DNA of 64,000 nt from Nitrospirota bacterium (GCA_963749655.1 CAVVOB010000028.1:1-64000), one strand, 5' to 3'. Counted from the stretch's first letter, positions 4,942 through 29,113 are shown. The notes: generated from the sequence alone by a model not told the origin. Numbers and translations are program-made.

Positions 4942-4984
4942 GTAAGCCATAGCTTACACTAACACGGAGAGCATGTCAAGCTTC
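4942..4984 (-). promoter_or_regulatory. Sigma70 promoter plus operator for the recombination operon
   Basis: TTGACA-N17-TAAGCT on minus strand; overlapping palindrome GTAAGC-CATA-GCTTAC; near-identical layout at 19886-19928. Confidence 0.7.
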
Positions 4985-4995
4985 TCGTTCACTCG

Positions 4996-6243
4996 TTAGA
5001 ATTCTGTATCCTCATCCCTAAGATAGCGCGCCTCGTAGTCATAATGAACTCCCGTCACTTGGACAACGCGAGCGCTGTTCGGCTGGTAAGTCAGCAGACC
5101 CTCTGGCTGTTCGCTGTGCGATACGGTCCCTTGCTGACCAAACAACACAATATTATGTTGGCTTAATTCTGTTTCTGTAAGACCCCGGTCATGAACATCG
5201 TGGCTTGGTTCTTCGAGTTCAGCTGACAATGTACCTGTCTGAGCAGAGGCATAGAGAATTCCGTCGAAACCGAGTACGTTTGAAACGTACTCTGCTACAG
5301 CCTGAGTAGGAATATACTCTAATTGTTCATCGCGGGGTTGAACAGGTCTTGAGATGAGATGATGAAAACCTTGCAAGAACTTAAGGCGAGCTGCACGGTT
5401 TGCATAATTAGGATGAAAGATACTGCCAGCAAAACCGACGCCGATCCGTGAAAGGTCAAGTAGGCGAAAGCGTTGACTCGGAATGAAACGACCGACAGTA
5501 ACCAGACCAGCAACGGATGGCCGCACTTCAGCAATAGCAGTGACCTCTGATAACGCGCCATAAAATACGGAGATGCCCGCAGGATTCATACGGCCAGCGG
5601 GAGCAATGGCAGCTGATGGAGGGCCCAATTCTACGGCGGGTTGATCCAAGATGCTTCTCGCGGCGTCCTCTGATTCCGCAAGCCGAGCCCTGAATATTTC
5701 TGATATTCTCGTACCTGGCCCTATTTCGAGAACAGGCAGTTGGGATGCTTCAGCGCCGCCCGGAGCGCCAAGTATCTCTTCAAGTTCCTGCCTGGCTACG
5801 GCATCAAAAAACCGTGCATGATGCCTTATTCTTCTGGAAAAGGATTCCCAATTTTCCGAATATGGCCAAGATGATAGATTTGTTCGGTGATAGTTCTGAT
5901 CTCTCTCATAGAACCGCTCGTCTCCTGGTCTTTCTGATGCTTCTAATATGCGGGCGAGTTCCTCAGCTGCGTCATAGTCGATTTCAAGTTCTTCATGCAA
6001 TAAGTCTTCAAGACTGTCGCCTTCTTGCACATCCTCCACGCCTGCGGCGTTGAATGCCGGCCGCCAGTGACCTTGTTGGCAATATTCTTGTAGAGTATCA
6101 TCGATCGCTATTGCAAGATCCTCCAAGTCGATGCCCCTGACGTTTTCGTCATGACAATAGTCGCAATCGCCAAGTTCGGATTCTTCCGCAACGAAATCGC
6201 GAGCCGGTTCGTCATGAATGCAATTTAAGCAGATAAAAGACAC
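4996..6243 (-). CDS. RES-domain protein with Cys-rich HEPN/RES-type N-terminal domain
   Basis: CLNC/CDYC N-terminus; IFRAR, GRMNPAGISVFY, AEVRP, YIPTQ, GILYAS. Confidence 0.85.
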   Translation of the reverse strand: MSFICLNCIHDEPARDFVAEESELGDCDYCHDENVRGIDLEDLAIAIDDTLQEYCQQGHWRPAFNAAGVEDVQEGDSLEDLLHEELEIDYDAAEELARILEASERPGDERFYERDQNYHRTNLSSWPYSENWESFSRRIRHHARFFDAVARQELEEILGAPGGAEASQLPVLEIGPGTRISEIFRARLAESEDAARSILDQPAVELGPPSAAIAPAGRMNPAGISVFYGALSEVTAIAEVRPSVAGLVTVGRFIPSQRFRLLDLSRIGVGFAGSIFHPNYANRAARLKFLQGFHHLISRPVQPRDEQLEYIPTQAVAEYVSNVLGFDGILYASAQTGTLSAELEEPSHDVHDRGLTETELSQHNIVLFGQQGTVSHSEQPEGLLTYQPNSARVVQVTGVHYDYEARYLRDEDTEF

Positions 6244-6275
6244 GATGGTTAACTCCCAGAGCGCTTCGAGACATG

Positions 6276-7166
6276 CTATTGTCGTGGCTTCTTCTTAACG
6301 ATGCCTTCATAATATCTGACAAGGTCAACGACCTTCGCGACATCGCGATTGGCATTCTTTAATTGTTCGCCGAGACCCATTAGAATATTGAGGACTGTTT
6401 CATCCGTTATGTACCGAAACAAGCCGGATGCCCACAATTTGAGATTCTCATCACCAGCATTCTTGTAATAGTCCCAAAAACGAACTTTGACAAGATTATA
6501 GTCGATGTCAATCGAGCGAGCCTTGTCTCCGAATATTTCCGTCTCTTTGCCCGGGTCCTCCGTTATTCTATCAATCAACAAACATCCGACAATTATTCTG
6601 TCTTTTTCCTCTGAGCCTGGCGGTCTCGTGGTTAAGATCGCCACCCTCCCCTTGCGTGCACTGTGAATTCGCCGCGGCTGAGTCTTTTCCGCTGTTGTTG
6701 TGTCCCAACCCGCAGCAAAGTACATTTCTTTCAAGGCAATGCTTTCATAACAAGGATGATTGCCGAGAGAGACGTTGGCGTCGAAGTCCTGACAGTTATT
6801 GCTCGACAGACTGCACCAAGCCCTGTTCTCTGACAAGTTGTATCTGTAAGCAGCCTCGCTACATGGGGCTTGATAATGCTTATCGTTCCAATTGCACTTA
6901 AAGGCGATATTGCCGTCTTCTTTTTTACCAGCCTCTCTTTTCGACAAGATGTTATCAATGTCAGTTGCCAAGGCCTCAAGCTGTGTAGCTCTCTTGCTTA
7001 TAATGCTTTTTTGTTCGCTCGTAGCTATGCTTTTAAGCTTGTTGAAAAGATCACGAGCCTGCCCTAGCTTCTCCATCGAATCTGAAATGGATTTCTTTCG
7101 TATCCACGACTTTGTTTCATCGATGAGTTTATCAATTGTTTCTCTTATTTCAATAAAATGCTGCAT
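6276..7166 (-). CDS. Hypothetical protein (helical N-terminus plus Cys-containing domain)
   Basis: 296-aa AT-rich ORF; NIAFKCNWND, WCS, PCYES, ILTTRPPG. Confidence 0.7.
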   Translation of the reverse strand: MQHFIEIRETIDKLIDETKSWIRKKSISDSMEKLGQARDLFNKLKSIATSEQKSIISKRATQLEALATDIDNILSKREAGKKEDGNIAFKCNWNDKHYQAPCSEAAYRYNLSENRAWCSLSSNNCQDFDANVSLGNHPCYESIALKEMYFAAGWDTTTAEKTQPRRIHSARKGRVAILTTRPPGSEEKDRIIVGCLLIDRITEDPGKETEIFGDKARSIDIDYNLVKVRFWDYYKNAGDENLKLWASGLFRYITDETVLNILMGLGEQLKNANRDVAKVVDLVRYYEGIVKKKPRQ

Positions 7167-7175
7167 AACGGTATC

Positions 7176-8597
7176 CTACTTTTCAGCAATCTCAAATTTA
7201 CTCGTCTTAGATCTGAACAATTTAATACCTAGTATTTGGCAGACATCCAACGCGCTACCGATATATTTATTTACCGCAGCATTGATGCAGCATGCTTTAT
7301 TATAGTCTGCTTCACTTAGGCTCATCTGCCCTCGGTAGACTCGTTGAGCAGCTGCACCTGGCGTAAGACCATGCGTATCGAACCATTTCTTATACTCTTC
7401 CAGCACTTTGTCCCTGGTCCACAGAACTGTGCTATGTTCTTCTTGACCGAGAATAATGCGTAACTTTCTGACTCCTCCGATCCATGTCTTAATATAAACT
7501 GCCAGTGTATTGAGTGCTGGGCCTTTACGGTTTTTCCACTTTCCTCTTTTTCTAAGCCACTCTTCCGTGGGAAACTTGCCACCTGGACTTTTACTGGCGA
7601 GGTCCTTGCAATACTCTACCAATTCATCTGTATTTGACCAATGAGTTGACTGAATTATCTTATCAGTTGCCTTTTCAAATATATACGGTTTAATCAATCC
7701 TATATATGGTTTTAATATCAAGCTGAGACGTTTCTCGTCGAAACAATCTTGGTATTGAATCCCCAAGAATTGGTCGTTTGAAGAATTATATTTTTCTTTT
7801 ATAAGACGTTTCTTCGCATATCCTTTTTCATCGTGGCCGAGGGGTTTGTCACCCCATATTTCGACATCGATCCACTTCTTTTTATTACTTAAGAAAGTTA
7901 AATCATAATACCCATAATTCTGCTTCGCATACTTTGCGAAATCTGCCGGATATTTTCTCCCGATCTTATGATCGATTCCCCTAGCATATAAGAAGTTAGA
8001 TAATGACGCTTCAGGATGACTACGCCACCTCATGTTGTTTCTTGATTCAATGAAAGAGCTTCCCTGAAAGGAGTCGAACTGCGAGCGTAAATCGGCCCAT
8101 GTTTTGTTATGGCTATAAACTGCCTGTACTAAAGAACCTCGCCCATTCTTAGAAAACCACTCACCAGGAGGCAAAAATCCTTTCTCTTTAAATACCGCTC
8201 TTGCCTCCTTTATTACTCGTTCCCATGACCAGCGATATTGTATTTTATCACCGACTCTTCTTTTAAAACTTTTTCTTCTGTGTACTGCATATTCATCCTC
8301 TAACCCTAGAAGTCGAATTAACTGTTGTTGGGTGATTCCAAATCTGTATAAGCGATAATAAAGCCTATTCGTAATCTTCAGTCGTTTAAAAGATATTCCT
8401 TTAAAACCATGCTTTGCGTATAACTGACGGCATTCCTCAATTAACTCTTTTTGGGTCTTGCCGCAGATTTTCTTGCACGTAGTTCTCCTAGTTTTACTGA
8501 TCATGTGAGCTTTCGGAGCCCCTTTCTTAAGGTCCAGTTCGAGCATACCGAATTTTAATAAAAACAACAAGCTCAAATCAGAAGAGCCCCGGATCAT
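7176..8597 (-). CDS. Putative PD-(D/E)xK nuclease with repeated helical DNA-binding modules (start probably ~8504)
   Basis: RSHPEASLSNFL...YDLTF...IDVEIWG; repeats of W(S/T)xxxV/L...GxxP. Confidence 0.6.
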   Translation of the reverse strand: MIRGSSDLSLLFLLKFGMLELDLKKGAPKAHMISKTRRTTCKKICGKTQKELIEECRQLYAKHGFKGISFKRLKITNRLYYRLYRFGITQQQLIRLLGLEDEYAVHRRKSFKRRVGDKIQYRWSWERVIKEARAVFKEKGFLPPGEWFSKNGRGSLVQAVYSHNKTWADLRSQFDSFQGSSFIESRNNMRWRSHPEASLSNFLYARGIDHKIGRKYPADFAKYAKQNYGYYDLTFLSNKKKWIDVEIWGDKPLGHDEKGYAKKRLIKEKYNSSNDQFLGIQYQDCFDEKRLSLILKPYIGLIKPYIFEKATDKIIQSTHWSNTDELVEYCKDLASKSPGGKFPTEEWLRKRGKWKNRKGPALNTLAVYIKTWIGGVRKLRIILGQEEHSTVLWTRDKVLEEYKKWFDTHGLTPGAAAQRVYRGQMSLSEADYNKACCINAAVNKYIGSALDVCQILGIKLFRSKTSKFEIAEK

Positions 8598-8612
8598 CCG
8601 GGGCTCTCTTTT
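8582..8612 (-). terminator. Hairpin / terminator after the DUF6573-like gene
   Basis: agagccccggat-c-atccggggctct inverted repeat. Confidence 0.6.
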
Positions 8613-8620
8613 CCGAATTA

Positions 8621-9002
8621 TCAGTATTCTTCCGGCAGCAGGATCGTGAAGCCCTCATACTCCGAGAAGCAGAGCCAGAGCGTGACCGTAGCGGACCGGC
8701 GCGGGTCGGTCTGGTAGATCACCTCGAACGGGACAAGGTGCTTCTCCCCTGCCCGCTTGAATGCCGCAGCAGCCAGGAACAACGTATCCCATAACCGCCC
8801 GCTGTAGTCTTGCCAGCCGGAAAGAAGCTCCGGCACCTGCACGAGCGCATGCACGCCCACGGTAAGACAGACCGGAACACGGAACCCCGCCTCTTTCGCC
8901 TCCGGCGTCTCGCTCACATCGACCAGCTGACCATCCGCAATAGCCTGCTCACGCGTGTACATATGAATCACGCCCCACCCTTCTACATGCTGCTTGTCCA
9001 TT
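8621..9002 (-). CDS. DUF6573-like protein of mobile elements
   Basis: RBS aggagg; YTREQAIADGQLVDVS, EAGFRVPV, GRLWD, TILLPEEY. Confidence 0.75.
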
Positions 9003-9199
9003 GTGCTACCTCCTATTTGTTGCTTGAGATTAATTCCGGCTCCGAGAACCGGAAAGACAACTGAGGATCTACCGGGAACAGCCGCGCCAGGGCACACCCG
9101 CCGCAAAGACCACAGGCCGGGCCGACCTCGCACCAGCCGGAAGGACCGGCGACACTGGTCGAGGACAGCGACGACCTGCTCCACAAGACCCACCTCCTT

Positions 9200-10700
9200 T
9201 CAAAGAGAAGAACCCGAACCCCTGCGGCCTTCAACCAGCGAGAGGTCGCAGGGGTTGGGTTAGATAATCCGGCTGCGATACACCGGGGCTTATCATGCCG
9301 GGCCGGTATCATGAGACCCACCTACCCTTTGAGATGCAGAGCGAGTGACAGAGCGCTACACCCTGGCACGAGCGATGCGCTTCTAAGAGGCATGAGAAGT
9401 CGCAGACGGAGCCGTTGCCTTTCGAGCAGCTTGCGCTACGCGCTGCGCGCTCCGCTTCGCGTTCCGCTTTTTTCTCGGGGAGCCCGGCGAGGGCGGATGG
9501 GGATCGGCCGCGTCTGCCGCCGTCTGGCAGTCGCGGACGATCCGGGCGGGCGGGAGATCACAGACAGTGGGCTTGGTGCCGGAGCGAAGCGCAGGCACGA
9601 AGACCGATACCACAGGTGGACAGTTTGGTTTAGATTCACGGGAGGAGGCTTCGAGGGGAGCCCCTGGGGGCGGACGGGCAGCGGAGGAACGAGCAACCAT
9701 GCGGCCCGAAGGGTACATGGCGGGGCGGCCATGTACAGCATCCTCCCCCCTAAGGCGCTATAAATAATTTGCGCCAAGAGAGCCCACCCCTCTGGGAGTA
9801 CAATTGAGTGGAGGGGGGTGCCAGGGTGGGGAGTCCAGAGGGGAGGGCTCGGCGGGGGGAGGGCTGCCGCTTTGGGTGCCGTTCCGTAGCGGGGTGGCGG
9901 GGGGATTAGCGGAGCGACCGCCCGGTGGGTGGAGGAAGTGCCCGCTCAGCGCGATGGCTTGAGCGCGCAGGAATACCAGCCAAGCCGCGCATGCGACGCG
10001 GGCAGAAACCGCCAGAGAGCGCAGCGAAGCGGAGCGCTACGACAAGGTTTGACCGCGCCGCGCGGTTGCGGCGCCATGGGAGGGCAAAGCCCGGCTCGGA
10101 ACACCAAGGAGCTTTAGCGCCTTGCGGGCACGACGGAACCCACCGGGTGGGCGCGGAGCGGGTGTGGCCGTAGGATGTTGGTGTGGCAGTGGCAGTTGGT
10201 GTGGTAGTAGAAGTTGGTGTTGATGTTAGATGAAATAGATGGGGTGTGTGAAGTACTACCGCCGCGGGCGCAGCGACGCGGAGCCCGCCTGCCGGCCAGT
10301 AAGCAGAGCGAAGCGGAGCGCTATGAAATAAATGTGTTCAACTCACGCCCCTCGATGCCGGTCAGCCGCAGGAAGTAGCGCCTCTCCTTTCTGCGGATGT
10401 CCGGCCACCTTGTGCGAAGCGTGCGGTCTGCGCCGCCCCTTGGCGCAGTCCGCGTTTACGCGGAGCTGTCTTTATCACTGACAAAGCGAGGCGAAGGCAG
10501 GACGGCGTACGGAACGGAGCGAAGCGGGCGCAGCGCATCGGAGCGGATGTTCGCGGAGTGCGCGGAGCCCAAGCGGAGCGAAGTGGAGAAGCCGTGGTGA
10601 CGGAGCCGAGCCACCCCAGGCGAAGCGCTGCGCTCTGCGCCGTGCTCCTGGGCGCAGTGCGCGTCTGAGCGGAGCGGTTTTGGTCAGATAAGATGCAGTT
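9200..10700. other. GC-rich structured, probably non-coding region with (G)CG(A/C/G)AGCG repeats and hairpins; candidate single-strand origin
   Basis: Hairpin 9211-9261; AGCGAAGCGGAGCGCTA at ~10023 and ~10307; related motifs 10515-10680 and inverted at 9435-9470; no convincing ORFs. Confidence 0.5.
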
Positions 10701-10852
10701 TCATTTAGATCCCGCTTTTTGCTTAACGTGCTGAATAAGAATTGAAATAAAATGCAAACCTATGATAGAATAGCCTAATTTTTAATGATGGACATAATGA
10801 TTTTTTTTGCATACCATGTTCACGAGAATCAGCAATTTAAATTGGGGAAAAC

Positions 10853-12013
10853 ATGAATGACGTTCTGCGATTGAAAGCTGAGTTATTGTGTTCAGGTTTT
10901 CGAGTGAATCAGTTCTCGGATTCGATAGCCACTTTTTTCAATCCTCATAAACAGAAACGGACTGGTTTTGTTGGAGTACATCTTTCTTTTGGCGGAGTGG
11001 CAATCAATGCTCTAATGGATCGTTTCTATGAGAACGATGCAATTTTTACTAATGGCTCGGTTTTCGAGTTGAAACAGAACGAACATGAATGGTGGATTTT
11101 TCGCAATGGGGTCCAGACTCAGAAGGTGGCATTTATTGATCAACCGAGATGGTATGCTAAGACACTCAGAGACAGTCTCGGTATGGCTGACGTGTTCCTT
11201 GCTGAGGGATTTAACAACTTGATGGGTGCGCTCTCCGGCGTATGCGTGTACCATTTGCATAAAAAACCGTGTTCGTTTTGCGGGCTAACGCAGGCACGAC
11301 CGTTCCATCTTGATCCGACTGATTTCGCGAAAACGATTGCAGCTGCTTACGCTGAGAACCCCAAAATCACAGTGACAATCAACGGTGGAAACAAGTTAGA
11401 CGATAGTAATGGAATGTCTCAGTATATCGTTATTGCGAAAGCCATCAATGACGAGTTCGACAAACAATTTGGCAAGGGCGTCAGAGTACCCCTTCAGATT
11501 GAGTGCTCTCCCTCGAGGGACATCACAATTATTGACAAGCTTATAGATCTTGGTGTTGGTTCCTTCAGTATGAATTTTGAGTTCTATGATGAGAACACAC
11601 GGAAAGTTCTTTGTCCCATGAAGGGGGAAATACCACGAAACCTCTATGAAGCGAATTGGAAAAGAATCGTAGATCGTCTCGGAAGGTTCAAGGTTGCTTC
11701 AGTTTTAATCTATGGCCTTGATACTCGGAGATCATTGCTCGACGGAAGTCAATATCTTCTGGATATTGGCGTGTTCCCGAATATCAGTCCATTTAGACCT
11801 ATGCCAGGCTCAACATTTGAGAAACGCCCAGCGCCAGCATATACTGAATTTCTTGAAGACTCTATGATAGTAGCGGAGCAATCATTAAAAGCAGGCGTAG
11901 ACCCGGCGGAACGCCTAGGTTGCTTTACCTGTGGAAGTTGCTCAATCGAAAGAGACTGCATGAATTTTCTGCTAAATAAACAATCCCGCCTAGGAGAGGT
12001 GAATAATGCATAA
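10853..12013 (+). CDS. Radical SAM protein (MSMEG_0568-like architecture)
   Basis: CVYHLHKKPCSFC (CX8CX2C), PFRPMPGS, C-terminal GCFTCGSCS. Confidence 0.85.
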   Translation: MNDVLRLKAELLCSGFRVNQFSDSIATFFNPHKQKRTGFVGVHLSFGGVAINALMDRFYENDAIFTNGSVFELKQNEHEWWIFRNGVQTQKVAFIDQPRWYAKTLRDSLGMADVFLAEGFNNLMGALSGVCVYHLHKKPCSFCGLTQARPFHLDPTDFAKTIAAAYAENPKITVTINGGNKLDDSNGMSQYIVIAKAINDEFDKQFGKGVRVPLQIECSPSRDITIIDKLIDLGVGSFSMNFEFYDENTRKVLCPMKGEIPRNLYEANWKRIVDRLGRFKVASVLIYGLDTRRSLLDGSQYLLDIGVFPNISPFRPMPGSTFEKRPAPAYTEFLEDSMIVAEQSLKAGVDPAERLGCFTCGSCSIERDCMNFLLNKQSRLGEVNNA

Positions 12014-12971
12014 AATCTGCGTCCTTGATCGAATCGATATCACTGAAGAACAAAAAAGCCGGCTAATTCAACTCGGGGGCTCTAATTCGGCGGTCGGTTT
12101 TTTCAATTCATTACCGAACCCATCCGATGCCAATGAGATTCTGCGTAGGATTGGAGATGCCCCCATCGTTTTAACCAGTTGGACCGATTTTCCGGCTCAA
12201 GTCATCGAACAATTACCGTCGACCGTCAAAATGCTTTCTATCGTTGCAACATCGTATGCGTGGGTTGATGTTGCAGCAAGTCGAAAACGTGGAATCGCAG
12301 TCAGCAACGTACCTGGCTATGCAAGGTACTCGGTGTCTGAACTCGTATTCGCTTTTATTCTTGATTGGGCGCGTAAAGTCAGACAAGCAGACGCAGAAAT
12401 GCGGATCGGCAAGTATGATCGAGCGCCCTTCATGGGCAAAGAGCTATTTGGGAAAACGATGGGTATTATTGGACTTGGATCGATTGGAAGTCGCGTCGCA
12501 ATCATTGCAAAGGCTTATGGTATGAATGTTAATGCAACTACTTTACATCCTGATGATAATCGCGCAAAAACACTCGGGGTAAAACTAACGGATCTGAACT
12601 CGACCTTCTCAAGTTCAGATATAATCACAATTCATGTCCCTTTAAACGATAAAACACGCGGACTCATCGGAAGAAAGCAATTTGAAGTTATCAAGAAAGG
12701 TGCATTTTTTATTTACACATCTCGTCCAGGAGTCTGCGATGAAGAAGCCCTCCTATGGGCGCTTGAAGCTGGACAATTAGCTGGAGCAGGCCTTGATGAG
12801 ACAAGCGAAGCAATAAGAACACCCGGGAGTCGGTTGCTGAAAATGTCAAACGTCTGCCTATCGCCCGAAATTGGATTTTACACGGCTGAAGCACTTAAAC
12901 GGCTTACAGACATCAGTATTGATAATGTTGAAAGCTTCATGCAGGGAAAAGCGGTAAATATTGCCAACTAG
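12006..12971 (+). CDS. D-isomer-specific 2-hydroxyacid dehydrogenase family protein
   Basis: SNVPGY, GKTMGIIGLGSIG, HVPLNDKTRGLI, SRPG, AGLD; catalytic His position reads SPEIG. Confidence 0.9.
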   Translation: MHKICVLDRIDITEEQKSRLIQLGGSNSAVGFFNSLPNPSDANEILRRIGDAPIVLTSWTDFPAQVIEQLPSTVKMLSIVATSYAWVDVAASRKRGIAVSNVPGYARYSVSELVFAFILDWARKVRQADAEMRIGKYDRAPFMGKELFGKTMGIIGLGSIGSRVAIIAKAYGMNVNATTLHPDDNRAKTLGVKLTDLNSTFSSSDIITIHVPLNDKTRGLIGRKQFEVIKKGAFFIYTSRPGVCDEEALLWALEAGQLAGAGLDETSEAIRTPGSRLLKMSNVCLSPEIGFYTAEALKRLTDISIDNVESFMQGKAVNIAN

Positions 12972-13002
12972 CAGTTGGTATGCGGCGAACGGGAGGCTTC
13001 TC

Positions 13003-13974
13003 ATGAAGAAACCCTGGAGTTCATATCACACGTTTCTTATAATTGAAATTGCGATAACGCTGATAATAGGCGTCGTTTTTGCTTTCCTTGAATGGAAATT
13101 CAGCGTGCTTATCGCAGCTATCGGTGCTATGATCGCCGTTGCCATGCACGCAATACCGCTGCGTATAGGTGACGAGATTCGGACTGAGATCGAAGACGTG
13201 AAGGCAACGTCGCATATCCTGGACTTGTGCCGACAAGTTGAGCTACCGGACTTGCAGTCTGCAAAACGAGCAATATTGGATGACTCAATTCAGTCTCTGC
13301 GCGAGCTTTCCGAGTGCAAAATATTTAATGAGAGATTTTATGCATGGGTATTTCAGCAGGTAGATGAGGCCGGTAAATCTATCAAAGCAGTGAGTGCTAT
13401 GATGGAAGATCAGTGGGCTTTACCGCGAGAGGTGTCCTATTATGAAAGGAATCGTCGTGCAGTTGATCGGAATGTTAAGGTAACAAGAATATTCCTAACA
13501 ACGAACGATCGGCTTTCTAAGAAGGAGAATCGGCATCCGATTCTTCTTCATCTGCTTCACGGACTAGATGCTCATATCGTATTTGCGCCTCAAGCACGCA
13601 CGTTACCAGGGAATGAATTAATCGTAAACGGCATTACGATCTTTGATGATCAAGTGCTTTATCAAGATGTTACATTACCTCCTGGCGATTCAATGACATC
13701 GGCAGGGGGGAAAATTATTTACGAAGCGACCGATGTACGACGTACGATCGATAAATTTGATGCATTGGTGCGACTATCAGAGGAACCACTGCGCGTATTA
13801 AGTCGCATTTCAGGCTCAGATCCCAAAGCTGAAATGTCGGAGATACTTATCTCACTTTATGGAACATATCAGAATTTAAAAGATGCTGTTGTATTGCCAG
13901 GCCATGACCGCAAAACTGACAAATGCGCGCTAACATATTGGGAAAAAATCGAGCAAGGTGTTAAGCTCGTTTAA
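13003..13974 (+). CDS. Membrane protein: two N-terminal TM helices plus soluble domain
   Basis: RBS gggagg before ATG 13003; hydrophobic segments; YYERNRRAVDRNVKVTRIFL. Confidence 0.7.
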   Translation: MKKPWSSYHTFLIIEIAITLIIGVVFAFLEWKFSVLIAAIGAMIAVAMHAIPLRIGDEIRTEIEDVKATSHILDLCRQVELPDLQSAKRAILDDSIQSLRELSECKIFNERFYAWVFQQVDEAGKSIKAVSAMMEDQWALPREVSYYERNRRAVDRNVKVTRIFLTTNDRLSKKENRHPILLHLLHGLDAHIVFAPQARTLPGNELIVNGITIFDDQVLYQDVTLPPGDSMTSAGGKIIYEATDVRRTIDKFDALVRLSEEPLRVLSRISGSDPKAEMSEILISLYGTYQNLKDAVVLPGHDRKTDKCALTYWEKIEQGVKLV

Positions 13975-13989
13975 AAACAGGATCAAACT

Positions 13990-15069
13990 ATGCGAAACAT
14001 TCCGGAATACCTCCCCTGGTCGCAGCAAGTACTTAATTCGTCTATTCAAAATTTTCTTTCTGGGCATTTGCCTTGCCTAGACTTAGAAACGAGCGCGATT
14101 TGTCGACACAGCGCGTGCATTTATTGCGACTCTGATTGTGCGGCGCCCATGCCAGGCGAAATGAATTATGACAGTGTTGACACAATTTTCAAGCAAGCAA
14201 CCAAATTAGGAACGAGATGGGTATATCTTTGCGGTTTAGGCGAACCTACTGATGACCCCAAGTTTTTACGGCTATTGAATGGAGCTCAAGAATTTGGCAT
14301 TAGTATTTCTATGTTCACTAATGCAGCCAGATATTCACCTGAACTTGTTAAGGCGTTAGTAGAACATGAAGTGTCATTAATTGTGAAGCTTGACTCATTA
14401 GCTTCAACAAACTTTGACCGACTTCTCGGACGTACCGGTACTGCAGAACGCATCTACCACACAATTGATGCTCTTATAGATGCTGGTTATCACCAACTAT
14501 GCAAATCTGATACAACCATGATCGCAGCATCCATAATACCTACCAAGATAAACTATAGAGACATACCAGATGTTGTTAGTTATTGTATCGAAAGAAATCT
14601 ATTCCCTTCTATTGGTGAATTAGAATGTGCAGGACGCGCAATGTCAAAATATGCAGACCTTGCTCTCTCAGTTGATGAACTTAGAAATTTGAAAATGCAG
14701 GTAGACTCGCTTGTTGGTTACAACTATGAACGCCCCACGTGTCCAGCTGCGTTGGCAGGCTTACATATATCTAATCTAGGAGAAATCATTGTTGATCGAT
14801 GCACAGGAGTCTGCTGCCAATGGTTTCTCTTGCGAGGGCCAGATTTATTCAAAATCGGACATGCCGCCCAAATGAGCCTATCCGAAGCTATGAAAAGAGT
14901 TCACGAATATCGAATTAAGAATATACTCGAAAGTAAAAAAATTCTTGAATGTCCACCATCTGTAGTTTTTGGTGGCTGTGGTGGCAAGGCAGATCAAATT
15001 CTGAAGGAACATATTCGTATTCTTGGTTATGCAGATATTTCTCGCGATACAATTTCGCATAGTAGTTAA
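13990..15069 (+). CDS. Radical SAM protein with Cys-rich C-terminal extension
   Basis: CRHSACIYC (CX4CX2C), CGLGEP, FTNA, CPA...CTGVCCQW...GGCGG. Confidence 0.85.
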   Translation: MRNIPEYLPWSQQVLNSSIQNFLSGHLPCLDLETSAICRHSACIYCDSDCAAPMPGEMNYDSVDTIFKQATKLGTRWVYLCGLGEPTDDPKFLRLLNGAQEFGISISMFTNAARYSPELVKALVEHEVSLIVKLDSLASTNFDRLLGRTGTAERIYHTIDALIDAGYHQLCKSDTTMIAASIIPTKINYRDIPDVVSYCIERNLFPSIGELECAGRAMSKYADLALSVDELRNLKMQVDSLVGYNYERPTCPAALAGLHISNLGEIIVDRCTGVCCQWFLLRGPDLFKIGHAAQMSLSEAMKRVHEYRIKNILESKKILECPPSVVFGGCGGKADQILKEHIRILGYADISRDTISHSS

Positions 15070-15129: not shown

Positions 15130-15678
15130 CTATCTCCTCGCGTACCTCTCCGAATGCTCCTTGTGCCTCTCCCAATTCTCGATGTAGCCCCTTGCAAGTT
15201 CTTTCGACCTAAGCACGAGAAGGTTCTCGGCGTTCTTCTCCTCCGCTGCCTTCGTGAAGTTGAAGCTGCCGGTAATCACCACGGCCTTGTCGATGATCAT
15301 GACTTTGTTGTGCGCGATCGAGTGTGCCGCGTCTATGTACGTCGGGATACCAGCGTGCGCCGTGAAGTCAGCAGAACTGTAACGCTCCTTCCGCTGCGAT
15401 CGGTCGAGGATGATCTGAACATGGACCCCGCGCTTATGCGCGTCAACAAGTGCCTTGGCTATGGGTGCGGATGTGAAGGAATAGGCCTGAACGAGGATCT
15501 CAGTCTTTGCATGGCTGATCGCGCTCACGACGGCCTCAGTGCAGCCGCCTCGAGGACTGAAGAACACCTGCACCTGTTCGATGTCCTTGCCCGAGACCTT
15601 GAGCGCCCCGCCATACACAGCGAAGACGACGATAGCTGAAAGAAGCAGCATGACCGTTACAAACAGGAATTTTCGCAT
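15130..15678 (-). CDS. Exported phospholipase-D-family nuclease (Nuc-like)
   Basis: Signal peptide; FSPRGGC, HNKVMIID, TGSFNFT, NAEN. Confidence 0.9.
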   Translation of the reverse strand: MRKFLFVTVMLLLSAIVVFAVYGGALKVSGKDIEQVQVFFSPRGGCTEAVVSAISHAKTEILVQAYSFTSAPIAKALVDAHKRGVHVQIILDRSQRKERYSSADFTAHAGIPTYIDAAHSIAHNKVMIIDKAVVITGSFNFTKAAEEKNAENLLVLRSKELARGYIENWERHKEHSERYARR

Positions 15679-15751
15679 CGCAAACCTCCTTTTCCACCCT
15701 CAAAAGCCCGATTTTCTTTTTTCTTTGTGCTATATAGAGTGGTGGTATAGA

Positions 15752-16249
15752 TCAGTGCAGCGTGAACCTCTTCTCCTTGTACTCCCGCTTGTCGATGGTC
15801 CCCTGCTCTCTCAACTCAAACCAGGTCGGTTGCTTAGGGCCGTCCGACGCAAAGGGTGAGTAGCCGATGAGCACAAAAGCTATGAGTGCGATTGCTCCGG
15901 CGATGATGTACTCCCCTGGCTTCCCGGTCCTGATCTTCCCACCGAACAGGGTTAGGCTCTTCGAGTTCTCGTCGAACACCGGGACGCCCGTAACCGTGAG
16001 CGAATCCATAAGCAAGTGCCCGACGCAAACGCCGAGGATCACGGCCCGCATCTGCGGTTGGTTCCAGGTCAGGAAAAGAGTGATCGACCATAGCGCCAGT
16101 GAATGAGTGAGCCCACGGTGCGCGACCTTGCCCGGCAGCAGCCGTTCGGCGAGGTCCGGCAAGATCGAGCCGAACGCGGCGAGATAGTAGTTAAAACCGA
16201 AGAACTTGGCCGTGGCTGTGCCGACGGCGATGTGACTGATCCATGTCAT
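15752..16249 (-). CDS. Metal-dependent membrane hydrolase (YdjM/DUF457-like)
   Basis: MTWISH, GSILPD, HRGLTHS, HLLMDSLTVTGVP; ATGA overlap with the ATPase gene. Confidence 0.85.
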   Translation of the reverse strand: MTWISHIAVGTATAKFFGFNYYLAAFGSILPDLAERLLPGKVAHRGLTHSLALWSITLFLTWNQPQMRAVILGVCVGHLLMDSLTVTGVPVFDENSKSLTLFGGKIRTGKPGEYIIAGAIALIAFVLIGYSPFASDGPKQPTWFELREQGTIDKREYKEKRFTLH

Positions 16250-16890
16250 ATCTTGCGACCTCCCATCCTGACGCCTTGGAATATGTACCGGACTGCTGCA
16301 GCAACGAAAAGCAGAGACGACATACCGAGAACAGCGATAATGACGATCAGGATCACAATTAGAAACATAGTAGCGTCGTAGGTGTCCGCCCCTGCTCCAA
16401 GGCTCTGCATCCGGGCATTCTTGAGACGAACCTTGATCTTCGGATTGAGCCACGAGAACTGGGTACACCCGACCACCGTTCCCCGCGCCTTCTGCATTAA
16501 CTCTAAAAGCACAGTCGTTTTCTTCGAGTCCGTGAGCTTCTCGGCGTTGTCAACGATCAGGTAGTAAGTCTCCGGCAGCGTGCGCATGTAGATGTCGATG
16601 CGCTTGTCGATGTCCTTGCCGAAAAGCTTCCATGCCTTGACCCATGTGGTCATCGGTTCCAGCGCGTCGATGTAGACGACGTTCTCCCCTGCCCGCTTCA
16701 GCTGCTCCGCCAGTCGGTTGATGAACGAGGTCTTGCCCGTCGACGGCCCGCCCTCCACCACGAGACATTCGCCGTCCCGGACGTAGTGCCATGTATCTTT
16801 GCCGTTCTGGTGCTTCCGGAAGTAGACATAGACCCGGTGGCCGGCGCGAGTGGCCTTCGAGACGATCTTGGGATAGAGCCGGGCGAACAT
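16246..16890 (-). CDS. P-loop ATPase with C-terminal TM hairpin
   Basis: GGPSTGKT, LIVDNAE, hydrophobic C-terminus; TGATG coupling at 16890. Confidence 0.8.
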   Translation of the reverse strand: MFARLYPKIVSKATRAGHRVYVYFRKHQNGKDTWHYVRDGECLVVEGGPSTGKTSFINRLAEQLKRAGENVVYIDALEPMTTWVKAWKLFGKDIDKRIDIYMRTLPETYYLIVDNAEKLTDSKKTTVLLELMQKARGTVVGCTQFSWLNPKIKVRLKNARMQSLGAGADTYDATMFLIVILIVIIAVLGMSSLLFVAAAVRYIFQGVRMGGRKI

Positions 16891-17536
16891 CAGTGCCACC
16901 TCTTCGGAAACTCGAGGATTTCGGCCTCTCGCCATCCACCTCCAGAGACCGGACCTGCTCCGGAAGAATCCCGTAGCTCCAGACCGCGATAGGGCGAACC
17001 CTGTTAAGCATGGCCTGAAACCCGGCGAGGAACTTGAACAGCACATCGCTGGACCGGATATCAGGCGGAGAAAGCGCCACGGTCGAACCGACCGGGATGC
17101 CCTGAAAACAGAACGGGAACGAGCTTTCCCCTGCCCAGCCGACCGTAGGGACGACGGTGATACCGTGCTCCTGCCAGTACCGGCCAAGCCACCGGCTGCG
17201 GTATATATTCCAGAGGTTCACTGACAGGGGCCAGTCAGTGTAGAGAGAGAAATCAGGCGTGAGGACGACCCGGAATTGAGAGAGCCGGGGAACATAGACA
17301 GAGGGCCGGTTCCACACCCTTTCAAAGCGGTAGTCGTCCAGGAAGAAGTGACAAGCGTAGCCTTCCAGGAGTTCGTGACTGTTGAACGGGACGAGCCCGA
17401 GGATCTCCGGCGCGGGCGTGTATTTCAGCATGGGGATCCCGTAAAGATTGGCGGCCGGGTACAGCGCATGGGTGTTCAGCGCGTCCCAGCCGCCCGGCAT
17501 GTTCGCCTTCCAGTTCTTGCTGCTTCTCGTCGCCAT
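16890..17536 (-). CDS. DUF4417-domain protein (1-nt deletion near ~16920)
   Basis: CHFFLDDYRFERVWNRP, LTPDFSLY, WNIYRSRW, GITVVPTVGW, FCFQGIP; restoring one A gives KILEFPKRWH*. Confidence 0.85.
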
Positions 17537-17607
17537 TATTTGCCACCTCCGCCTTTTCCGCCGCTTCCGCCCTTCGGGGCCTTACCTCCGCGTCCTCCCA
17601 TGTTCAT
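17536..17607 (-). CDS. Gly/Lys-rich micro-peptide (MN)MGGRGGKAPKGGSGGKGGGGK
   Basis: Fills the gap exactly: TGATG overlap upstream, TAATG overlap with the DUF4417 start, SD-like aaggtggtga. Confidence 0.7.
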   Translation of the reverse strand: MNMGGRGGKAPKGGSGGKGGGGK

Positions 17608-18262
17608 CACCACCTTTCCCTGAGCATCGTCTTTAACTGCGGCCTTGAGCCTTCATCGACCATCCCGAGAAGCGAATCAGTAAGGGTCGTGACCTGCGAG
17701 TGTGCGATGTCGAGCGCCTCTTGCTCCTTCATCAGCACGATCTTTTCCTTGAAAAGTTCCTTCTGGTAGTCAACGCCTGCATCAACACGCTCCTGGAGCC
17801 ACGCGACGTAAGCGGAAAGCTCCTTTATCCGGGCAGACTGGTTCCGGGCTGCCGCCTGCTTCTCCCTGAGCTGGTTGAACGATGAAAGCGCCGTCTCGCG
17901 GATCGTCTGGACGGTTTTGAGCATGTCCGTGGTCCGCTCCCGGGCCTCGCGGGAGTCCAGGAGCGGGACGGATAGCGTGATCGCTGCCGTGGTTCCGGCC
18001 TTGGTGGTGTCGGTCGTCGTGGTGTAATCGGTGGTGTCCTTATCAGTACCGTTGAAATACTTCTCCGTGAGCGTTCCGGTAACTTTCGCGTTCTGGAGCA
18101 CCCGAGCAGAAGTACCCAGCGTCCGCCACCTCCCGCGCCTGCTGCGCCCTGGCATTGTGCCTGACGATGTACTCGACGATGGCTACGCCGTCCTCGGCAA
18201 AAGACCGGACTGATCGGAAGCAGAAGGATTGAGACAAGAAGCGTGAAGCATCTTTTCATCAA
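17607..18262 (-). CDS. Secreted coiled-coil protein, weakly TolC-like (two frameshifts)
   Basis: Signal peptide MMKRCFTLLVSILLLPISPVFA; beta-strand segment ending LSVPLLD followed by long helices. Confidence 0.55.
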
Positions 18263-18300
18263 GTGAGGTCTCCTTTTATTCGCGTTTCGAGCAGCTTAAG

Positions 18301-18741
18301 CTACGCTCTGTCGACTTTTGGAAAATCCTCCGAGAATGGATGATCCAACAGATACCAGGTGATCAGCGTGATGGCGCTTTCGAGGGAATAGCACACGATG
18401 ACCGCGTAGCCTTCTTCCCATAGGAGCTTATGGACGCTGGCTTGCTCCGGCGACACCTTGCCGTCCGGGGCCTTCATCTCGATGAAAAGGCCGTGCGACC
18501 CTCCCCGCGCACAAGGCAAGAAGATGTCGGGGATACCGCGCTTAACTCCCTCGCGCTTGAGCTTCTGAGCCGTTGGCGAGAACCAGCGGCCCTTCTTGTC
18601 CTGCCGCTTCTCGCGCTTCCCGCCGTTCGGGATCGCGAACATGAGGGCCAGTTCGGGATAGCAAGCTGTCTGGAGCTGCGCCCAGGAGAACAAAGCGGAC
18701 TGAATGTCGTGTTCGGTGCTGCGCATGGTGCGAAGGTTCAA
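18301..18741 (-). CDS. VRR-NUC domain nuclease
   Basis: EHDIQ, FAIPNGGKR, GVKRGIPD, LFIEMK, SPEQ. Confidence 0.9.
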   Translation of the reverse strand: MNLRTMRSTEHDIQSALFSWAQLQTACYPELALMFAIPNGGKREKRQDKKGRWFSPTAQKLKREGVKRGIPDIFLPCARGGSHGLFIEMKAPDGKVSPEQASVHKLLWEEGYAVIVCYSLESAITLITWYLLDHPFSEDFPKVDRA

Positions 18742-19500
18742 TGTGTCACCTCCTGAAGTGCCCGGTTTCGCGCTCTGTTTCTTGCTTCCCGTTCCAGATA
18801 CGGCGTGATGTCCTCGTCGCGCATGGCAATGAGGAACGCCGGAGGGCTGCGTATCTCGTCCTTGCTGATCTCGCCGAAGCGGAGCTTTGCGAGGAAGAGA
18901 TAAGCTCGCTGAGTTGTGACCACGTCCGGCACGACCAGCGTCGGAAAGAAGCGTTTCAGGTCTTTCAAAACCGTCTCTCTCTCAGGCACGCTCAAGCTAG
19001 CTTCAGCATTTGAGAGAGAGATTTTTTCTTTAATTCTTTCTTTTCTTTCTTTAGGTGCCTGCAACCCCGCGAAGTCATTCGGCAAAAGTGCCTTTCTCTT
19101 CATCTCTACGGATGAAGAGTCTTCATCCCTACGGATGAACGGTTTCATCTCTCCAGATGAAGGAGTTTCATCTCTGGAGATGATGATTTCATCTCTACGG
19201 ATGAAGGTTTTCCAGGCTGCATAGTCCTTCTGAACCCGGTAAAAGTTGGCCCTGACGGACGACCATGTTCATGTCGGTCAGGCGCCTGACCGCGCGGGGG
19301 ATCAGCCGTACATCGAGGTTGACCTCCCGCGCGATCTTCGTGGGCGTAAGAAACACCTCCTTGCTGTGCCAGCCATAGGAATTGCGGATGATGCAAAGCA
19401 GGACCCGGCGGGCATGGTCCGGCATGGGTGTCCGCATGATGGCGTCAAGCAGTTCGTTGGCGATCGGCGTATATCCGTGCTCCTTCTGCGGTGAGGCCAT
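18738..19500 (-). CDS. Phage replication protein O-like initiator (frameshifted)
   Basis: MASPQKEHGYTPIANELLDAI N-terminus; internal iterons; basic KERKERIKEK segment in the downstream frame. Confidence 0.8.
19021..19205. repeat. Lambda-type origin: five 18-bp palindromic iterons plus AT-rich tract
   Basis: TTCATC-N6-GATGA(A/T) at 19099, 19122, 19144, 19167, 19188; T-rich tract 19021-19052. Confidence 0.8.
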
Positions 19501-19512
19501 GTCGCTCCCTGG

Positions 19513-19746
19513 CTAAACGTGCGCTTCTTCAAATTCTCCGCTCCTGATGCGGGCCTCTACCGGAAACGGCATGGGCACCTGGGCCTGTTCAAACGAAGCT
19601 TCGAGCACCTCGCCCTGCATCTTGATCAGCTCGAACACACGCTCCTTTCCCGCCCGGTCCGCTGCGATGAACTCCAGCGTGAGCGAAACCTTGAGGTCCG
19701 AATCCACCACCACCTTCTTCAGGTTCACGATCTGCTTCACCAGCAT
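19513..19746 (-). CDS. Hypothetical protein, first gene of the replication operon
   Basis: RBS aaggaggg; 77 aa. Confidence 0.65.
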   Translation of the reverse strand: MLVKQIVNLKKVVVDSDLKVSLTLEFIAADRAGKERVFELIKMQGEVLEASFEQAQVPMPFPVEARIRSGEFEEAHV

Positions 19747-19885
19747 GCGCTTCCCTCCTTTTGTCAGCTATGGCGAACGCTACAGGCAATAAAAAAGCCC
19801 GTCCGGGCCAGCATGAAGGCCAACCCTGCAAGGCTTCTCTAGTTGCTATTATTATGTTGAACCGGCTTAGGCGAATTGGCCACTT

Positions 19886-19948
19886 GTCAGCGATAGCTTA
19901 CAATAATAGTTCTTGCATGTCAAGCTTCCTGTAAGCTATAATTGACAC
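19886..19948. promoter_or_regulatory. Overlapping opposed promoters and operators of the repressor switch
   Basis: Minus strand TTGACA-N17-TAAGCT; plus strand TTGCAT-N18-TATAAT 6 nt before the repressor ATG; operator-like GTCAGC-GATA-GCTTAC and GTAAGC-TATA-ATTGAC. Confidence 0.7.
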
Positions 19949-20578
19949 ATGAACAAGGTGGGCAAATACCTCAAGAAGATGCGGGAAGGTGCGGACCTCT
20001 CGCTGCGCGAGGCCTCCAAACTGGCGCATGTCTCCCACACGTTCATCATGGAGATCGAGGAAGGCCAGAAGTCCCCCGCCTTCGACAAGGTCATGCAGTT
20101 GCTCCAAGCCTACCGCTCTGATGTCCAGGACTTCCTGCGCGAGACGGGTTACCTGCCGAAGAACGTCGAGCCCGCCGCCACCGGCAAGATGCGGAAGATC
20201 CCGGTCGTGTCCTGGGTAGTCGCCGGCAAGTGGGAAGAAACGGGGGAATCATTTCACCAGGAGGATGCAGTAGACTGGATCGAGAGCGACATCAAGGGGG
20301 AGCACAACTTTGCGCTGCGAGTGAAGGGCGATTCAATGGAGCCGGAGTTCAATGAGGGAGACATCATCATCGTCAGCCCAACTGCCAAGGCCGTGACTGG
20401 CGACTACATCGTTGCGAAGAACCACGAGGAAGAGGCAACGTTCAAACAGTATAAGAAGTTTGATACAACCCAAGTCCTTCACCCGTTGAATCCGAAATAC
20501 CCGGACATCGTGTTGAATAAGGATTTGGAGTACCGCATTGTTGGAGTGGTGATGGAGAAGAAGAAACGGTATAAATAA
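19949..20578 (+). CDS. CI/LexA-like repressor (XRE HTH plus S24 peptidase)
   Basis: LSLREASKLA...IEEGQKSP; VAG cleavage site; LRVKGDSMEP; ATFKQ. Confidence 0.92.
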   Translation: MNKVGKYLKKMREGADLSLREASKLAHVSHTFIMEIEEGQKSPAFDKVMQLLQAYRSDVQDFLRETGYLPKNVEPAATGKMRKIPVVSWVVAGKWEETGESFHQEDAVDWIESDIKGEHNFALRVKGDSMEPEFNEGDIIIVSPTAKAVTGDYIVAKNHEEEATFKQYKKFDTTQVLHPLNPKYPDIVLNKDLEYRIVGVVMEKKKRYK

Positions 20579-20713: not shown

Positions 20714-21667
20714 TCAGTGATAAAGATAAGTATCTAAATGCAGCCCAATATAGCCAATAATAAATTGGCTAGTGGTTCCATCCGGTGGATAAAAATGAAT
20801 CCGAAAGTTTTTACCCATCTGCTTACTATGCCAGGTGAATGTACGTTTTACGTCATCAGGGCATACAAATTCACGCTGGTATCCGTAATGCTTGAGTGTA
20901 ATCTCCGTTTCTTGACTTGCGCGTATGCCCATCTTTGAATATTCAGGTACAACTTTTTCGTCTTTTTCCCTTAACCTCCTTACCCCCATAATGTAGCTAT
21001 TCATCTTGGACAAATGTTCAAAAACGGTACCTATAAATTCATCTATGTTAATTTTTGCCAATTGTGCGTAAACATCATCACAGAATATCAATTCTGGGTA
21101 GAGTTTATCTTTTTGTTCCCAAAAAGAATCCCACGATGTAATCGTGCTAGCTAGAAGATCTCTTATCTCACGATAAGCAGTTTGATCTGCGGGATTATAA
21201 ACATTAAGCACTGACACTTCTGTTAATTCACCATCCTCTATTTTACACTGTAACAATAATTTGTTTACATTAAACCGCGGGACAGCTTGCAAACTAGATA
21301 ATAGTCCAGAATAGAGAGCAGCTCCTGCCAAGGAAGTGTTACAGACATCTACTCCGTCAAAGTGGCATTCATAGTAGTTAAAATTTTCATCTAATAAAGT
21401 TTCCACATAAGGACCTTTTCGAAGCACTATTGATAAATAGCGCATTTTATCACGCGATATTTCTTTTGAATCTGACAACCATTTTTGAACAGTGAGACCT
21501 GGGGCAAGTTCCTTCTGCCACAATTGGTGCGATGTGCAGATCGGATCTTGTCCGCAAAAGGGATTAAGATCGTTTATGACATCTATCAGACTTGACATCA
21601 AATTATCTGCTTGTTGCTTATTGGGCGCCTGCGATACGAAAGAAAGCTCATTCACAAAGACGTGCAT
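20714..21667 (-). CDS. Putative effector with RelE-like C-terminus (Menshen NsnC-like)
   Basis: TFTWHSK...RIHFYP...IIGYIGLHL; third gene after DUF262 and DUF3696 genes. Confidence 0.6.
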   Translation of the reverse strand: MHVFVNELSFVSQAPNKQQADNLMSSLIDVINDLNPFCGQDPICTSHQLWQKELAPGLTVQKWLSDSKEISRDKMRYLSIVLRKGPYVETLLDENFNYYECHFDGVDVCNTSLAGAALYSGLLSSLQAVPRFNVNKLLLQCKIEDGELTEVSVLNVYNPADQTAYREIRDLLASTITSWDSFWEQKDKLYPELIFCDDVYAQLAKINIDEFIGTVFEHLSKMNSYIMGVRRLREKDEKVVPEYSKMGIRASQETEITLKHYGYQREFVCPDDVKRTFTWHSKQMGKNFRIHFYPPDGTTSQFIIGYIGLHLDTYLYH

Positions 21668-24758: not shown

Positions 24759-24785
24759 ACCCTCTGTATATGGATCAGATAAAAC

Positions 24786-29101: not shown

Positions 29102-29113
29102 GGAAATTTATAA

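Follow-up and report, generated by a model that had tools for sequence, protein, structure and literature searches.

Prokaryotic viperins (pVips) are radical S-adenosylmethionine (rSAM) enzymes of defence islands that make a small antiviral molecule. In CBASS, in Pycsar and in type III CRISPR systems with transmembrane (TM) effectors, enzymatic synthesis of a small molecule is followed by a response that a membrane protein carries out, its ligand-binding domain facing the cytoplasm. The Nit1C cluster is composed of nitrilase, GNAT, AIR-synthase-like and flavoprotein genes, and the TrmB-type domain is a ligand-binding module in characterised relatives. A further rSAM operon, Ophion OpnABC, is described as a defence system against jumbo phages that is built around a viperin-related rSAM enzyme, with modified nucleotides as the proposed products (10.1101/2025.09.30.679545). 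Here, we describe a cassette of four genes at positions 10853-15069 of a 64,000-nucleotide stretch of DNA from a Nitrospirota bacterium (the window), which encodes two rSAM enzymes (rSAM1 and rSAM2), a 2-hydroxyacid-dehydrogenase homologue (HADH) and a membrane protein with two TM segments (2-TM protein). It can safely be described as a conserved, mobile and undescribed module, the core of which is a pair of non-canonical rSAM enzymes, usually accompanied by the HADH-like protein and by a non-catalytic TM protein resembling phospholipase D (PLD) and TrmB folds. Our favoured reading, to which we assign a probability of about 0.4, is that of an uncharacterised inter-genome conflict module (anti-phage or anti-plasmid) in which the enzymes would make a small molecule and the TrmB-like membrane protein would act as its sensor or as the executor of the response.

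Whereas pVips have no second rSAM enzyme, dehydrogenase-like protein or TM protein, the cassette has all three. The partners reported for Ophion, which occurs in Gammaproteobacteria, are a PHP phosphatase and a phosphoribosyltransferase (PRTase), and none of these three components is described for it. The logic that we propose for the cassette would be analogous to that of CBASS, Pycsar and type III CRISPR systems with TM effectors, although the cassette has no cyclase or CD-NTase; its producers would be the rSAM enzymes and its receptor the PLD/TrmB-like protein. Scans of the proteins from the window and from related cassettes in other genomes against Pfam, NCBIfam and PADLOC named no system, and no description of this gene combination was found in the literature covered, subscription journals lying outside that coverage. 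The initial annotation, which had recognised no named pathway and had asked whether the genes map to a known metabolic cluster, is in agreement with this result, as NCBIfam matched no named cluster.

The four genes are co-oriented ORFs on the plus strand that overlap or nearly abut, with an overlap of 8 nt at the first junction and gaps of 31 nt and 15 nt at the second and third (Table 1). Their GC content is 43.8%, compared with 58.8% for the chromosomal flank (33000-64000) and 57% for the backbone genes (15130-19900), and the genes at 4996-9193, 15130-18155 and 20714-32420 all lie on the minus strand. The earlier description of four tightly packed, AT-rich genes opposite in orientation to the element backbone was therefore accurate. 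Because these ORFs are long in AT-rich DNA and have homologues in conserved order elsewhere, they are genuine rather than chance reading frames. Together, the four genes are one horizontally acquired operon. For gene 3, the ATG at 13003 is the most likely start, giving a protein of 323 aa, because it is preceded by a GGGAGG Shine-Dalgarno sequence 5-10 nt upstream and is shared with the database protein P0001. A sigma-70-like site in the leader (TTGAAA-18-TAGAAT, 10742-10771) is only a candidate for the cassette promoter, from a scan that returned 8 sites against 7.1 expected by chance.

A search of species-representative genomes with an rSAM2 profile identified 72 loci, the neighbours of which were counted by phmmer and by clustering of ORFs. 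At 12 of these 72 loci (the sister loci), rSAM2 is adjacent to rSAM1. Eight of the 12 have HADH between rSAM1 and the following gene, and 10 have a 2-TM PLD-like protein at the window's position 3. The exceptions to the latter are L013 and L064, where rSAM2 and rSAM1 are followed by a PPDK-like enzyme and no position-3 protein is present. At L015, a short-chain dehydrogenase/reductase (SDR) fused to rSAM1 stands in place of HADH; a lone unrelated HADH match was found 5 kb away in L045. We also performed an independent metagenome scan anchored on rSAM1, using seven closer rSAM1 sequences as the query, which returned four loci (L074-L077), three of them with rSAM2 and/or HADH adjacent. These comprise rSAM1 followed by an HADH gene cut by the contig end (L074), an rSAM1-rSAM2-TM protein-B12 rSAM arrangement with the same gene order as L014 (L075), and an rSAM2-rSAM1 pair without a TM protein (L076), whereas L077 is cut upstream. 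The co-occurrence that the initial annotation had proposed to check is thus found, with gene order conserved outside the window. As a minor point, rSAM1 of L064 (853-2011, Holosporaceae) occupies two frames that overlap, 853-1326 and 1166-2011, owing to either a frameshift or an assembly error.

The relationship of these loci was analysed with a maximum-likelihood tree of 68 rSAM2 sequences, comprising the window and 67 loci; five loci with an rSAM2 ORF shorter than 250 aa were excluded. An rSAM1 neighbour is present in 12 rows (the window and 11 loci), which all fall in one 20-row set with support of 100/100; the 48 rows on the other side lack such a neighbour. Within the 20-row set, sequences from Kiritimatiellota, Chloroflexota and Bacteroidota group together, and therefore the module moves horizontally. 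The mobile rSAM1-rSAM2 operon was found across at least seven phyla, and two non-canonical rSAM branches locked in one mobile operon offer a testable handle on both. On the 48-row side, some of the distant rSAM2 relatives reside on small Mob/serine-recombinase elements. Separately, we noted a second context of the rSAM2 family at L018, L019, L021, L028, L030, L052, L055 and L063 (around positions 7000-14000 of each), which contains rSAM2 (sometimes fused), a class-V aminotransferase, a ferredoxin/HyaE-like protein, an uncharacterised protein of 900-1186 aa, a methyltransferase and a pyruvoyl arginine decarboxylase, and which is apparently undescribed too.

rSAM1 carries the cluster motif C131-X8-C140-X2-C143, a C-terminal C357-X2-C360-X2-C363 motif and an N-terminal Cys13. 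All seven cysteines are invariant among 25 aligned homologues, and they likely correspond to the SAM cluster and, for the C-terminal CX2CX2C motif, to an auxiliary cluster. The protein scores 30.2 bits on the Pfam Radical_SAM model (cut-off 29.5) and passes the NCBIfam variant_rSAM model NF045502 with 145.3 bits (cut-off 125), as do four of the five sister rSAM1 proteins tested (146-159 bits); the L005 fusion scores 109.6. A full HMMER search yielded 806 relatives, 40 of them at E<=1e-30, and a word-based homologue search returned no match beyond rSAM1 itself. A 76%-identical rSAM1 fragment is present on a 5,433-bp contig, which is not the contig that carries the close homologues of the TM protein and rSAM2. 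Profile comparison gave ThiH as the closest solved structure (E 6.5e-6), followed by LipA (lipoyl synthase), RlmN, MqnE and PylB, all of them weak matches. The nearest named family is the MSMEG_0568 rSAM of Nit1C, which likewise matches NF045502. We considered membership of Nit1C and rejected it, as rSAM1 scores 119.7 bits (E 1.4e-34) on TIGR04043 (MSMEG_0568) against a cut-off of 303.7, its sister proteins score 77.7-121 bits, and no nitrilase, GNAT or AIR-synthase-like gene was found in the window cassette or its flanks, nor a flavoprotein gene in the cassette. Against plasmids, all listed matches of rSAM1 show 23-29% identity; 14 of the 34 rows seen are annotated as MSMEG_0568, and one match (H1) adjoins an aliphatic nitrilase gene.

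In rSAM2, the cluster motif is C38-X4-C43-X2-C46, which is invariant among 31 aligned homologues. The initial annotation had reported CX8CX2C with CX2CX2C for the first enzyme and CX4CX2C for the second, both departing from CX3CX2C, and this reading of the two proteins holds throughout the homologues aligned. RadicalSAM.org lists CX8CX2C and CX4CX2C only as megaclusters without assigned function (PMC9477430). Four further cysteines of rSAM2 are conserved in the 31 relatives, C81, C251 and C276 in all and C330 in at least 90%. The Pfam Radical_SAM model (PF04055) matches with 52.3 bits (cut-off 29.5, E 9.6e-14), a homologue search found 174 sequences, and no NCBIfam model came near its cut-off. 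By profile, the closest solved structures are SkfB (E 2.3e-14), MoaA (4e-8), BlsE, viperin (3e-6) and BtrN; the ESM Atlas places the protein in generic rSAM/SPASM clusters, which we treat as a lead only. Likeness to pVips is one of functional analogy. The PADLOC pVip models score 27.2 bits (residues 42-162) and 24.2 bits and cover the rSAM core only, the canonical pVip motif is CX3CX2C, and both SkfB and MoaA outscore viperin. Viperin membership, which the precedent named in the initial annotation might suggest, was rejected with 20.1 bits on NF038283 against a cut-off of 180.

The second gene of the cassette encodes an NAD(P)-binding protein that matches Pfam PF02826 (2-Hacid_dh_C; E 9.6e-48, 162.3 bits) and PF00389 (E 5.5e-18, 65.4 bits), and reaches no NCBIfam equivalog at its cut-off. 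Its Rossmann GxGxxG motif is intact, with G153, G156 and G158 invariant. An Arg-Glu-His triad is the defining catalytic feature of D-isomer-specific 2-hydroxyacid dehydrogenases. The window copy retains R240 and E268, and the position of the catalytic histidine ('TPH' in 5tx7 and 1wwk) is occupied by E288 ('LSPEIG'). The eight sister-cassette copies keep the histidine and carry a tryptophan at the canonical substrate-binding arginine position. By alignment, therefore, the full canonical triad is present in neither HADH clade, and the assignment made in the initial annotation stands with one correction, the absence of the family's catalytic histidine. An enzyme scaffold that misses a different catalytic residue in each clade would be an unusual case of repurposing.

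The membrane protein is composed of an N-terminal 2-TM hairpin (approximately residues 11-53), a helical stalk and a PLD/TrmB-like domain (approximately residues 95-265). Two N-terminal hydrophobic segments, separated by a five-residue loop and bordered by basic outer flanks, were identified in 13 of 13 family members examined, in line with the 2-TM protein originally annotated. According to the positive-inside rule, this arrangement implies that both termini and the PLD/TrmB-like domain would be cytoplasmic. The structure search proposed in the initial annotation for this gene yielded a PLD/TrmB-like fold: in VIA-align, the AF2 model of the window protein, which is of low confidence, matches Nuc (1bys) with Z 13.1 and rmsd 3.1 over 145 aligned residues; 19 PLD-type rows score Z>=10.3, the TrmB sugar-binding domain (11.5) among them, and unrelated rows lie at 7 or below. 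Domain blocks of this model have a pLDDT of 65-78. The position-3 protein of the L004 type, modelled from nine sequences, reaches 72-92 in its domain and matches FAM83B (Z 11.8), NucT (11.4) and TrmB (10.9) in VIA-align; Foldseek places TrmBL2/TrmB at the top (E 3.9e-5), with 18 matches at E<=0.001. A PLD fold was thus recovered in the predicted structures of the position-3 proteins.

The two position-3 sequence families are paired by hhalign with a probability of 44%. Because models of both match the same PLD/TrmB set, we propose that they share an architecture in spite of their lack of sequence similarity. The HxKx4D/E motif is absent from all 13 position-3 proteins, whereas the Nuc-like control encoded next to the cassette carries it as HNKVMIID. 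As in the sugar-sensing regulators TrmB and TrmBL2, a long helix leads into a PLD-like effector-binding domain without the HKD motif; the likeness comes from predicted structure, as there is no match at the sequence level. However, TrmB and TrmBL2 have an N-terminal winged-helix DNA-binding domain where the cassette protein has its 2-TM hairpin, and Pfam gave no helix-turn-helix (HTH) match for the latter. Because a TrmB-type ligand-binding domain is combined with a membrane hairpin in place of the DNA-binding head, the models suggest that the protein is a receptor or effector at the membrane.

Only one other homologue of the window TM protein, with 69% identity, was found in a word-indexed set of 5.8 billion proteins; a 5,872-bp contig is the only one on which this homologue was found, and likewise the only one for an rSAM2 with 73% identity. 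The ESM Atlas returned unnamed clusters, one with DUF6879 on 19% of its members, again only a lead. The TM protein shows the greatest divergence of the four in every pairwise cassette comparison. For rSAM1, HADH, TM protein and rSAM2 in turn, identities are 50, 65, 27 and 66% between L005 and L070, and 51, 53, 33 and 57% between L004 and L010; between the window and L004 they are 29%, 31%, no hit and 44%. The predicted ligand-binding type of fold and the fastest divergence in the cassette would fit the effector or sensor role first suggested for this protein.

An alternative explanation of the close association of rSAM2 and the TM protein is protein maturation, in which one or both rSAM enzymes would modify the adjacent TM protein and the modified protein would be the active effector. 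The HXS system, in which an effector is reported to be matured by an rSAM enzyme, provides a precedent (PMC13128918). The TM gene and rSAM2 are direct neighbours in the window, at 10 of the 12 sister loci and at L002 and L075, rSAM2 has its best solved relative in the sactipeptide maturase SkfB, and the operon leaves no intergenic room for a separate precursor peptide. We nevertheless regard this as a very improbable account of the cassette. The SPASM domain (PF13186) gave no Pfam match in rSAM2 at E<=0.1, despite the extra conserved cysteines, and small molecules are the substrates of the enzymes closest to rSAM1 by profile. A conserved Cys-rich or repeat motif is absent from the TM proteins, the invariant columns differ between their two families, and L013, L064 and L076 carry the rSAM pair with no TM protein at all.

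The genomic context of the module was surveyed at the 11 sister loci that span 9 kb or more, and mobility or defence/restriction-modification (R-M) genes were found nearby in 10. Mobility genes are unambiguous at L006 (TnpV/IS200), L009 and L011 (T4 coupling protein), L013 (transposases) and L070 (serine recombinase), and genes of conjugative-element type occur at L005 (LPD28/DUF1281_C) and L010 (DUF932/PDDEXK/HerA). Besides the window, recognised defence or R-M neighbours are present at four of the 11: a GajA-like ATPase and PDC-S15 at L004, PDC-M60A at L005, an HhH-GPD nicking restriction enzyme and a C5 DNA methyltransferase directly upstream at L007, and Alw26I R-M, PDC-S14 and HamB at L015. 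Since the sample is small and has no background rate, this context is suggestive only.

The sister cassettes also vary in their accessory genes. Bacillota cassettes have a class-I SAM methyltransferase fused to rSAM1 and a TrmFO-like flavoenzyme after rSAM2 (cluster c7, 8 loci), L007, L014 and L075 encode an additional B12-binding rSAM (methylase), and at L003 rSAM2 is accompanied by a PPDK-like enzyme, an aminotransferase and a histidine phosphatase. The TrmFO-like gene and the methyltransferase fusion would be expected if the cassette were a mobile module for modification of nucleic acids (tRNA, rRNA or DNA), for example, by base hypermodification for self-protection or anti-restriction. The restriction and methylation genes immediately upstream at L007 point in the same direction, as does the profile similarity of rSAM2 to the nucleotide-acting MoaA, viperin and QueE. 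However, the window cassette contains neither a TrmFO-like nor a methyltransferase gene, Pfam detected a nucleic-acid-binding domain in none of its four proteins, and a membrane-anchored partner together with a dehydrogenase-like protein would be unexpected. The three TrmFO-like proteins tested all exceed the NF003739 cut-off of 262 (289-326 bits), but they lie under the stricter cut-off of TIGR00137. On balance, we consider a nucleic-acid modification module improbable.

We infer that the cassette enzymes carry out small-molecule chemistry, because the nearest rSAM families act mostly on small molecules or nucleotides and because the accessory genes encode methylases and oxidoreductases. In the mechanism that we propose for a conflict module, the two Fe-S radical enzymes and the HADH-like protein would act on a common cytoplasmic metabolite (a hydroxy- or oxo-acid, a sugar acid or a nucleoside sugar) and turn it into a modified small molecule. 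The PLD/TrmB-type domain of the TM protein would bind this product and act on the membrane as an effector; alternatively, the TM protein could sense the trigger and control the enzymes. Placement among conflict systems would accord with a module that is found on islands, integrative and conjugative elements (ICEs) and transposons, often near restriction or defence genes. We rank this reading first because of the membrane receptor/effector-like TM protein, the mobile and defence context and the fast evolution of the TM component; the product, its binding by the TM protein and the role in defence are what we infer, and the structure, motifs, folds, conservation, mobility and neighbours are what we observe. 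If the module is immune, it would extend rSAM-based immunity beyond viperin-type single enzymes and add a membrane-anchored TrmB/PLD-like domain as a new type of receptor or effector. A more far-reaching version, in which rSAM chemistry makes an alarm or toxic molecule and a membrane-anchored TrmB-like receptor-effector collapses the membrane of the infected cell, would constitute a new immune class, and we judge it unlikely; if it is true, the rapid divergence of the receptor would be the trace of an arms race against inhibitors from phages or plasmids.

Several observations weigh against a conflict module. The structural argument draws on a model of the window TM protein with a mean pLDDT of 58.9, for which Foldseek recovered the same families with a best E of 3e-3 and none at E<=0.001, and the rapid divergence of this protein could reflect mere weak constraint. 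Because the catalytic histidine is replaced by E288, the window HADH may work differently or be impaired. In PADLOC-DB v2.0.0, rSAM1 and the TM protein have no hits and HADH and rSAM2 have weak generic hits, and the sister-cassette proteins gave none beyond a generic methyltransferase hit; the PADLOC check proposed in the initial annotation therefore ended without a system model matched by the cassette proteins beyond generic domains. Its suggestion of an antiphage system retains the mobile cargo and the neighbouring defence and R-M genes on its side, and lacks a PADLOC model beyond the partial pVip match. Defence or R-M neighbours in four of 11 long loci are not clearly above background, and two loci lie amid housekeeping genes (enolase, CTP synthase and HslUV-like genes at L014 and L012), with housekeeping and ABC-transporter genes as the only neighbours at L014. 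rSAM2 had no match in 72,556 plasmids and 50,697 phages and one distant match, at 31%, in viral contigs. Finally, the accessory enzymes of the sister cassettes (methylases, TrmFO-like, SDR and PPDK-like proteins) resemble biosynthetic tailoring enzymes.

This last point bears directly on the explanation that we rank second, an accessory biosynthetic or metabolic cassette that serves as fitness cargo of mobile elements and has no immune role. Its product could be a secondary metabolite, an antimetabolite, a cofactor or a membrane or envelope modification, and the TM protein would serve as a scaffold at the membrane, as a regulator, or as a helper in self-resistance or export. Tailoring or supply functions would readily account for the methyltransferase or SDR fused to rSAM1, the TrmFO-like and PPDK-like enzymes and the B12-rSAM methylases, as well as for the aminotransferase and histidine phosphatase at L003. 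The housekeeping flanks of L014 and L012 fit equally, as do the biosynthetic-looking clusters of distant rSAM2 relatives (class-V aminotransferase, ferredoxin, methyltransferase and pyruvoyl arginine decarboxylase) and the occurrence of MSMEG_0568 rSAM genes, the nearest named family to rSAM1, beside plasmid nitrilase genes (25-29% identity). Several features are less expected of such a cassette: the module occurs in a patchy range of taxa that is incongruent with the rSAM2 tree, rSAM2 is found in none of 60 related genomes at E<=1e-20, and the module recurs within ICEs, transposons and R-M/defence clusters. In addition, the TM protein evolves 2-3 times faster than the enzymes, and the core is not accompanied by any conserved transporter, regulator or carrier protein. 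We hold the biosynthetic explanation to be possible but somewhat doubtful, and nearly as likely as a conflict module; if it applies, the product would be a metabolite that spreads on ICEs in anaerobes of gut, rumen and sediment. A role in arsenic or metalloid metabolism, suggested by a GAPDH and an MFS gene beside rSAM2 at L012 and by TehB-like methyltransferases near distant relatives, was also considered and dropped: with 169.6 bits, the L012 GAPDH stays below the cut-off of 450 of the ArsJ-associated model, and NCBIfam returned nothing for the MFS protein.

Table 1. Positions of the cassette genes and of other features in the 64,000-nucleotide window.
Feature	Position	Strand	Details
rSAM1	10853-12013	+	386 aa
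2-hydroxyacid-dehydrogenase homologue (HADH)	12006-12971	+	321 aa
Membrane (2-TM) protein, gene 3	13003-13974	+	323 aa from the most likely start; open frame from 12961
rSAM2	13990-15069	+	359 aa
AT-rich leader	10690-10852	+	5' of rSAM1; 31% GC, ~160 nt
Tyrosine integrase	31206-32420	-	Adjoins tmRNA 3' end
tmRNA gene	32601-32953		Tag ANNELAYAA; island integration site
Menshen NsnABC, complete	20714-23930		NsnA E 2.4e-138, NsnB 5.7e-111, NsnC 6.7e-49
HEPN/RES protein	4996-6243		Island gene
Two AT-rich genes	6276-7166, 7176-8597	-	296 and 473 aa; adjoin HEPN/RES gene
Nuc-like PLD gene	15130-15678	-	Genuine HNKVMIID motif; adjoins cassette
Defence-type run	24084-30100	-	HhH-GPD glycosylase-like, NOV_C, SNF2 helicase, 419-aa unknown, BglII-like endonuclease, N4/N6 methylase

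The island that carries the cassette in the window includes an integrase next to the tmRNA gene, a complete Menshen system and further genes of defence type (Table 1), among them a BglII-type R-M pair and an SNF2 helicase with weak ZorD/DpdE-like matches. A repeat of at least 14 nt of the tmRNA 3' region, as expected for an attachment site, was absent elsewhere in the window; the far border of the island may be missing from the sequence, because the window starts at a contig end. No near-identical match to the cassette DNA was found in plasmids. The two AT-rich genes that adjoin the HEPN/RES gene are without a match in Pfam, PADLOC and NCBIfam, and could form another cargo system.

Directly 5' of the cassette, the region 9200-10690 is a GC-rich stretch of 1.5 kb (65% GC) with no convincing ORF and no Rfam match. 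A dispersed motif, GAGCGAAGCGGAGCGC, occurs within it in both orientations, with at least six direct copies and two inverted pairs. A 43-nt direct repeat (77% identity) at 4942-4984 and 19886-19928 flanks a segment of about 15 kb that comprises the RES/HEPN gene, the two AT-rich genes, the cassette, the Nuc-like PLD gene and DUF4417 genes, and these repeats may be the borders of a module. Five tandem 19-nt palindromic units (TTCATCTCTACGGATGAAG and variants) are arranged at a spacing of 21-23 nt at 19099-19206, about 750 nt upstream of an HTH/S24 repressor-like gene (19949-20578), and resemble an operator or iteron array belonging to the island.

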